The translations under genes were made by a program, and so were the position numbers. Shown piece after piece: positions 57,418 to 57,490 of a stretch of DNA of 64,000 bases. The notes under the pieces are model-generated. The model was not told the origin of the DNA. It made no database searches and saw only the letters and a program-made list of their open reading frames with translations. Positions within the stretch are counted from its first letter, which is position 1. Each line of letters begins with the position of its first letter. The DNA lies in assembly GCF_003334335.1 (NCBI RefSeq), contig NZ_QOWQ01000007.1. One strand, 5' to 3'. The DNA is from Escherichia coli (lineage in GTDB: Bacteria; Pseudomonadota; Gammaproteobacteria; Enterobacterales; Enterobacteriaceae).

Positions 57418-57449
57418 GGGCAGGGTGGTGACACCTTGCCCGTTTTTTT
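57418..57449. terminator. Bidirectional rho-independent terminator between convergent wzzB and hisI
   Basis: Stem 'gggcagggtg'/'caccttgccc' (one G-U pair), loop 'gtga', then T7 on plus strand and a U-rich stretch on minus strand; second hairpin at 57451-57477. Confidence 0.75.
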
Positions 57450-57490
57450 GCCGGATGCGACAACAAAATCGCATCCGCTTACCCCGCAAC

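Follow-up and report, generated by a model that had tools for sequence, protein, structure and literature searches.

A bidirectional intrinsic terminator probably shared by wzzB and the his operon of Escherichia coli

A G+C-rich hairpin in the spacer between the convergent wzzB and hisIE genes of an E. coli chromosome (hairpin 1) is very probably, at roughly 85%, a bidirectional intrinsic (Rho-independent) terminator common to the two transcription units. The first-pass annotation had proposed a shared two-way terminator for wzzB and the his operon. Support for this reading comes from the anatomy of the element on both strands, a folding stability in excess of that of shuffled sequences, RNA 3' ends mapped in the near-identical K-12 locus, an architecture kept across genera (26 of 26 other spacers), and a counterpart in Salmonella.

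The window, a 64,000-nt stretch analyzed as a whole, derives from the E. coli chromosome; a 301-base query around the spacer matches 5053 of 5426 complete E. coli genomes. Strain ECZP248 is 100% identical over this query, and the end of wzzB is annotated there as facing the end of hisIE. The wzzB gene (O-antigen chain-length determinant; 56415..57395, + strand) is identified by its open reading frame and by annotation in the matching E. coli genomes, and reads toward the his operon; its start at 56415 (MRVENNN) was taken from the 981-bp length of the K-12 gene. The longest wzzB reading frame begins at an ATG at 56361 and spans 344 aa; the annotated K-12 protein has 326 aa (MRVENNN...), which corresponds to the start at 56415. 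The final gene of the his operon, hisIE (57491..58102, − strand), is likewise identified by its reading frame and the annotation of matching genomes. The wzzB stop codon is TAA at 57393-57395 on the + strand and the hisIE stop codon is TGA at 57493..57491 on the − strand; the 95-bp gap between convergent wzzB and hisI described by the first-pass annotation is thus borne out, as 57396-57490 between the stop codons. A scan of 56500-58500 for σ70-like promoters found no sites, so the spacer is not a promoter region, and an Rfam search of 56900-58000 with a lenient cutoff yielded nothing beyond chance-level matches to eukaryotic miRNAs and snoRNAs (E > 1), so no RNA family is assigned to that interval. 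In two genomes, TUM12355 (locus L005, 590-706) and CUVET19 (locus L006, 1596-3160), all that remains of hisIE after the spacer is its 3' part, which is annotated as an incomplete gene with a pyrophosphohydrolase domain, and beyond it lie a hypothetical gene and a manC-type pseudogene; the TUM12355 genome has three places matching the 301-base query.

Anatomy and conservation of hairpin 1

Hairpin 1 (57418..57441, both strands) is delimited by its folds and their z-scores; its stem-loop is identical in K-12, and a hairpin is found at the same position in orthologous loci. The stem consists of 10 bp, seven of them G-C, formed by pairing of 57418-57427 (GGGCAGGGTG) with 57432-57441 (CACCTTGCCC), and is closed by the 4-nt GNRA-type loop GUGA (GTGA in the DNA; 57428-57431). 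The pair 57423/57436 is G·U in the + strand RNA and an A·C mismatch in the − strand RNA. Beyond the stem, the + strand continues with G57442 and then with a T7 run at 57443-57449, the U-tract of the wzzB-direction terminator, which is recognized from the sequence, the consensus scan and K-12 3' ends. On the − strand the stem is followed by the U-rich his-direction tail AUUUUCUUU (57409..57417, read as the complement of 57417..57409), which has 7 U in 9 bases, starts with A and is interrupted by C; this tail is recognized from the sequence and the K-12 his 3' end, and it is also the A-run 5' of the stem for the wzzB RNA.

The + strand of hairpin 1, as a 41-nt segment, folds with −27.8 kcal/mol against −9.1 ± 2.4 kcal/mol for shuffled sequences (z = −7.8; 0 of 200 shuffles as good). 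The − strand fold reaches −15.4 kcal/mol (z = −3.1; 1 of 200 shuffles as good), and the bare stem-loop has −19.3 kcal/mol on the + strand and −13.9 kcal/mol on the − strand. Sequence and shuffle folding together confirm the strong hairpin with T7 on the + strand and a U-rich tail on the − strand that had been noticed on first inspection. A terminator consensus scan called hairpin 1 on the + strand and not on the − strand, where the mismatch and the broken U run do not satisfy its rule. Hairpin 1 has the features of an intrinsic terminator, namely a G+C-rich, short-loop stem, a U tract 3' of the stem and, in K-12, in vivo RNA ends within the U tract; it also has those of a bidirectional terminator, lying between convergent stop codons with an A-run on its 5' side and a T-run on its 3' side and having, in K-12, flanking and overlapping RNA ends.

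Two positions of the element vary within E. coli. Position 57436, opposite G57423, is T, A or G among 16 E. coli sequences and never C, so the stem always retains a wobble or mismatch there. Position 57417, just outside the stem, gives the tail its first base in the his direction (A, U or G in RNA); it is T in the window, O55:H7 and HYM1, A in K-12 and O157, and C in B2-type strains, and the C allele adds a C-G pair to the stem.

For comparison across Enterobacteriaceae, one genome per species was scanned with a degenerate pattern for a conserved HisE motif, and the hisIE stop codon and a convergent wzzB homologue were then located. A convergent wzzB within 116 bp was found at 26 further loci, in Citrobacter, Salmonella, Enterobacter, Lelliottia, Kosakonia, Pluralibacter, Pseudocitrobacter, Rahnella and others. 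In all 26 spacers (37-116 bp) there is a single G+C-rich hairpin that lies between an A-run and a T-run; an automated recheck agreed except for one bulged stem. The stems themselves fall into groups: CCGGGC...GCCCGG in Salmonella and Citrobacter, GACCGGG or CCGGGG in Enterobacter, GGCCGC in others, and GGGCAGGGTG in Escherichia. Since stem sequences differ between genera, it is the two-way terminator architecture that is conserved and not the sequence; the hairpin/A-run/T-run layout has been retained in evolution and the stem sequence replaced. A reading of the spacer hairpins as chance palindromes was rejected on the shuffle z-scores and conservation.

E. coli D4 (locus L136, 1906-3038) departs from this layout. 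Here foreign, AT-rich DNA that carries an acyltransferase gene and a divergent wzzB takes the place of all sequence to the left of a second hairpin in the spacer (hairpin 2), with the junction of the foreign block exactly at the left edge of hairpin 2. Hairpin 1 is absent, leaving strain D4 without the usual his terminator.

RNA ends in K-12 and the mode of termination

The K-12 spacer differs from that of the window at 3 of 95 bases (57417, 57460 and 57467), with no indels, and the hairpin 1 stem-loop is identical; position 57417 is A in K-12 and T in the window. Term-seq of MG1655 lists a wzzB-strand 3' end at 2097270 in two growth-condition sheets (Adams et al., 2021; PMC7815308, supplementary file 1). 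That list has no his-strand 3' end here; the his end appears only in the TRS analysis, which combines Term-seq and RNAtag-seq and gives a 'Primary' wzzB terminus at 2097267-2097269(−) and a 'Primary' hisI terminus at 2097305(+) with a 3' UTR of ~80 nt (PMC10687069, Supplementary Data 2-4). The TERMITe supplements have no entry for the wzzB-his terminator locus. Aligned to MG1655, the wzzB ends at 2097267-2097270(−) lie at the fourth to seventh U of U7 (window positions 57446-57449), and the his end at 2097305(+) lies at the equivalent of 57411, immediately after GCCCUUUUUCU and 7 nt past the stem. With their ends so placed around hairpin 1, the two K-12 RNAs therefore overlap by 39 nt (2097267-2097305), a segment that comprises hairpin 1 and both tails. 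These 3' ends sit where intrinsic release is expected. The first-pass annotation had named 3'-end mapping as the check on its terminator, and the published maps, which are of K-12 and not of this strain, give the positions that such a terminator predicts; judged by sequence, the same ends are probably formed in the window's strain. Term-seq of K-12 also lists ORF-internal ends at 2098243 and 2098289 (−), equivalent to about 56473 and 56427 (+) in the window, within the first 60 nt of wzzB, and a mid-wzzB 3' end at 2097849 (−), equivalent to about 56867 (+); the ends at the wzzB start may reflect premature termination or processing.

In the proposed mechanism, RNA polymerase arriving from wzzB would transcribe the stem-loop GGGCAGGGUG-GUGA-CACCUUGCCC and next G and U7; the hairpin would form in the exit channel while a weak rU:dA hybrid occupies the active site, and the transcript would be released in the U run, ~50-54 nt past the wzzB stop codon. 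Polymerase arriving from hisIE would pass, in order, hairpin 2, an A7 run, the complementary stem-loop with its one A·C mismatch, and AUUUUCUUU, and would release its transcript ~7 nt past the stem to leave an 80-nt his 3' UTR. Judged by these features, termination in the wzzB direction looks strong, as the stem is fully paired, the loop is of the GNRA type and U7 follows. In the his direction the signal looks weaker, and its efficiency may be modest because of the internal A·C mismatch, a first tail base that is A in this strain (U in K-12), and a U run broken by C.

This site defines where the his operon mRNA and the wzzB transcript end, and it restricts antisense transcription into either unit. 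The first-pass annotation held that the element insulates the his operon; it stands as a major barrier, and the claim of full insulation is not sustained by the K-12 data, in which transcripts of the wzzB strand are detected past hairpin 1. A wzzB-strand 3' end at 2097075(−), about 57641 (+) in the window, is antisense to hisI and lies 192 nt past U7 (PMC10687069). Published K-12 data also place a bicyclomycin-sensitive Rho termination region, centered at 2096632(−) and equivalent to about 58084 (+), antisense to hisF/hisI and ~640 nt beyond hairpin 1; reads there were 154 upstream and 16 downstream without bicyclomycin, and 140 and 56 with it. Either wzzB transcription partly passes hairpin 1 and is finished by Rho, or antisense RNA starts inside hisI. 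Given these further K-12 ends and the Rho region, antisense to hisI, the shared terminator is a major barrier that is probably not complete.

Two other accounts of the K-12 ends assign hairpin 1 a lesser part in release. In the Ju/Liu model the hairpin would mainly pause polymerase, and release would need head-on and trailing collisions of wzzB and his polymerases. The 39-nt overlap of the K-12 RNAs around one hairpin is the pattern described for collision sites, and the weaker his-direction signal, with its mismatched −13.9 kcal/mol stem and interrupted U run, fits a need for such help; however, the collision sites described in the preprint do not resemble intrinsic terminators and hairpin 1 does: its tail is U7 in the + strand RNA and has 7 U among 9 bases in the − strand RNA. 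The terminator of Salmonella, moreover, is cited as Rho-independent and as strong when used alone in constructs, where convergent transcription is lacking, and release that depends on collision is accordingly unlikely at this site. Alternatively, polymerases would run on until stopped by Rho or otherwise, and 3'-to-5' exonucleases would trim the RNAs back to hairpin 1, which would then act as a protector of RNA ends. The Rho region and the further 3' end downstream on the K-12 wzzB strand agree with this account, trimming to hairpins is the topic of a published study of Rho-dependent 3' ends, and mapped 3' ends alone cannot tell termination from exonuclease trimming to a hairpin. On both strands, however, the ends lie 5-9 nt beyond the stem and within a U run, which is the site of intrinsic release, and the A-run/T-run flanks are kept in 26 other loci, although a pure exonuclease barrier needs none; trimming as the main source of the ends is therefore quite improbable. 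With ends in U runs and a conserved A-run/T-run symmetry making both accounts the less likely ones, we infer that release is driven by the hairpin and not by collision or trimming.

The first-pass annotation further counted hairpin 2 as part of the terminator region, which would make it a second or backup terminator. Its stem, a perfect 9 bp (57452-57460 with 57469-57477) around an 8-nt loop, is stable (−14.9 and −17.8 kcal/mol; z about −4.5 on either strand), and compensatory changes occur in it within Escherichia. But the hairpin is followed by CUUACCCC on the + strand and GGCAAAAAAAC on the − strand, with no U run, and the consensus scan gives no call; the K-12 tables searched (PMC7815308, PMC10687069) hold no mapped 3' end after it; the terminator-bearing loci of other genera all lack it; and for the wzzB RNA it sits past the release site. 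A terminator role for hairpin 2 is most improbable and was rejected, as neither strand is U-tailed and no RNA end falls there. Of the proposed two-hairpin terminator, hairpin 1 stands. Hairpin 2 begins 13 nt past the hisIE stop codon and, since the wzzB RNA ends before it, belongs to the his 3' UTR.

Origin and possible role of hairpin 2

Hairpin 2 (57450..57482, both strands) is best explained as a decayed palindrome of REP type within the his 3' UTR; it is recognized by its fold, by ends that alone are REP-like, and by its occurrence as a single copy in Escherichia only. The first-pass description of it as REP-like holds for its ends and fails for its center, which is unrelated to REPs. It resembles REPs in being extragenic and in its first 11 bases, which match exactly (GCCGGATGCGA) and carry the 5' motif GCCGGATGCG(A). 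Set against the consensus REP ends GCC(G/T)GATGCG ... ATCCGGCCTAC, its 5' end is exact and its 3' end imperfect, ATCCG-CTTAC differing from ATCCGGCCTAC by one deletion and one mismatch; its tetranucleotide is GTAA where REPs have GTAG. Aligned to REP types it scores 7-11; shuffles score ~2.8 ± 1.4, and true REP types score 18-24 against one another. REPs are imperfect palindromes of ~35 nt with an internal mismatch, whereas hairpin 2 has a perfect stem and an unrelated center. REPs also occur in many copies per genome, but a 40-nt hairpin 2 query finds one place per genome in 3234 genomes; a true REP from the long-form spacer described below finds a median of 4 places per genome even by megablast. 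The MG1655 RefSeq record has no REP features annotated in a 49-kb stretch around the locus.

Canonical REPs do occur beside hairpin 2 in other strains. A 90-bp block made up of two canonical REPs that point in opposite directions lies between the T-run and hairpin 2, at the equivalent of window position 57449/57450, in 1197 of 5426 E. coli genomes, among them Nissle 1917, ST131 and clone D i14 (loci L002 (~381-601), L003 and L134). The block is flanked by the direct repeat (G/T)CCGGATGCGA. Because the long form occurs in E. albertii as well, the window's short spacer may have arisen by deletion between the repeats. Elsewhere in the window, the palindrome GTCGGATGCGAAATAACGACATCCGC at 20502-20527 has a form like that of hairpin 2 and adjoins a canonical REP cluster (20529-20631), which hints that short palindromes of this kind are by-products of REPs.

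Hairpin 2 is absent from the other genera having the terminator and present in E. albertii. Among 15 Escherichia sequences its stem has two-sided changes, from C-G to U-A in four and from A-U to G-C in one, with a covariation score of 0.173 against 0.119 ± 0.014 for shuffles (0 of 500 reach 0.173), and the loop CAACAA-A is nearly invariant. This covariation is only modest evidence for selection because the sample is small, the sequences are related, and template switching can restore palindromes. Three rearrangements have a junction at the left edge of hairpin 2, namely the 90-bp two-REP indel, the foreign block of D4, and the E. albertii long form. The compensatory changes, near-invariant loop and three junctions leave room for a more doubtful reading, in which hairpin 2 would be an Escherichia-specific, selectively maintained structure of the his 3' UTR, for example an mRNA-stability element, and perhaps also a favored joint for recombination at the edge of the O-antigen region that faces his. 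By analogy with REPs, which are cited as exonuclease barriers, a decayed REP in this position could plausibly serve at most as an extra barrier to 3'-to-5' exonucleases.

Relation to known terminators

The wzzB-his terminator was known before, as a type of element and as this particular site, since the his terminator of Salmonella typhimurium was published in 1985 under a title that calls it a 'Convergently functional, Rho-independent terminator' (Carlomagno, Riccio and Bruni 1985, J Bacteriol 163:362). The site is a clean textbook case of one hairpin serving two convergent units, of little import beyond correct annotation. The group behind the 1985 paper compared the his operons of Salmonella and E. 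coli in 1988, a comparison that reportedly takes in this operon end too.

The E. coli element occupies the same place as the Salmonella his terminator, beyond the final gene of the his operon and opposite the convergent gene known today as wzzB, and has the same layout, one G+C-rich hairpin set between an A-run and a T-run; in Salmonella enterica arizonae the sequence at this position is AAAAAACCGGGCGUUGCCCGGUUUUUUUUU. The Salmonella terminator is also referred to as a strong terminator, 'His-T', that is used alone in constructs. The two differ in the stem, which is GGGCAGGGUG... in E. coli and the unrelated CCGGGC... in Salmonella; the E. coli stem is longer, contains the G·U/A·C position and is followed by a poorer U run on the his side, and E. 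coli has the additional hairpin 2. The E. coli stem-loop core (−19.3/−13.9 kcal/mol) is more stable than that of Salmonella (−10.3/−8.9 kcal/mol).

The element is also like the bidirectional terminators of E. coli recorded in Term-seq, SEnd-seq and TRS maps, in which one shared hairpin lies between overlapping RNA ends, and both K-12 ends at this locus are among those listed. From the bidirectional intrinsic terminators of E. coli it differs in nothing of substance; it is one such site, in another strain.
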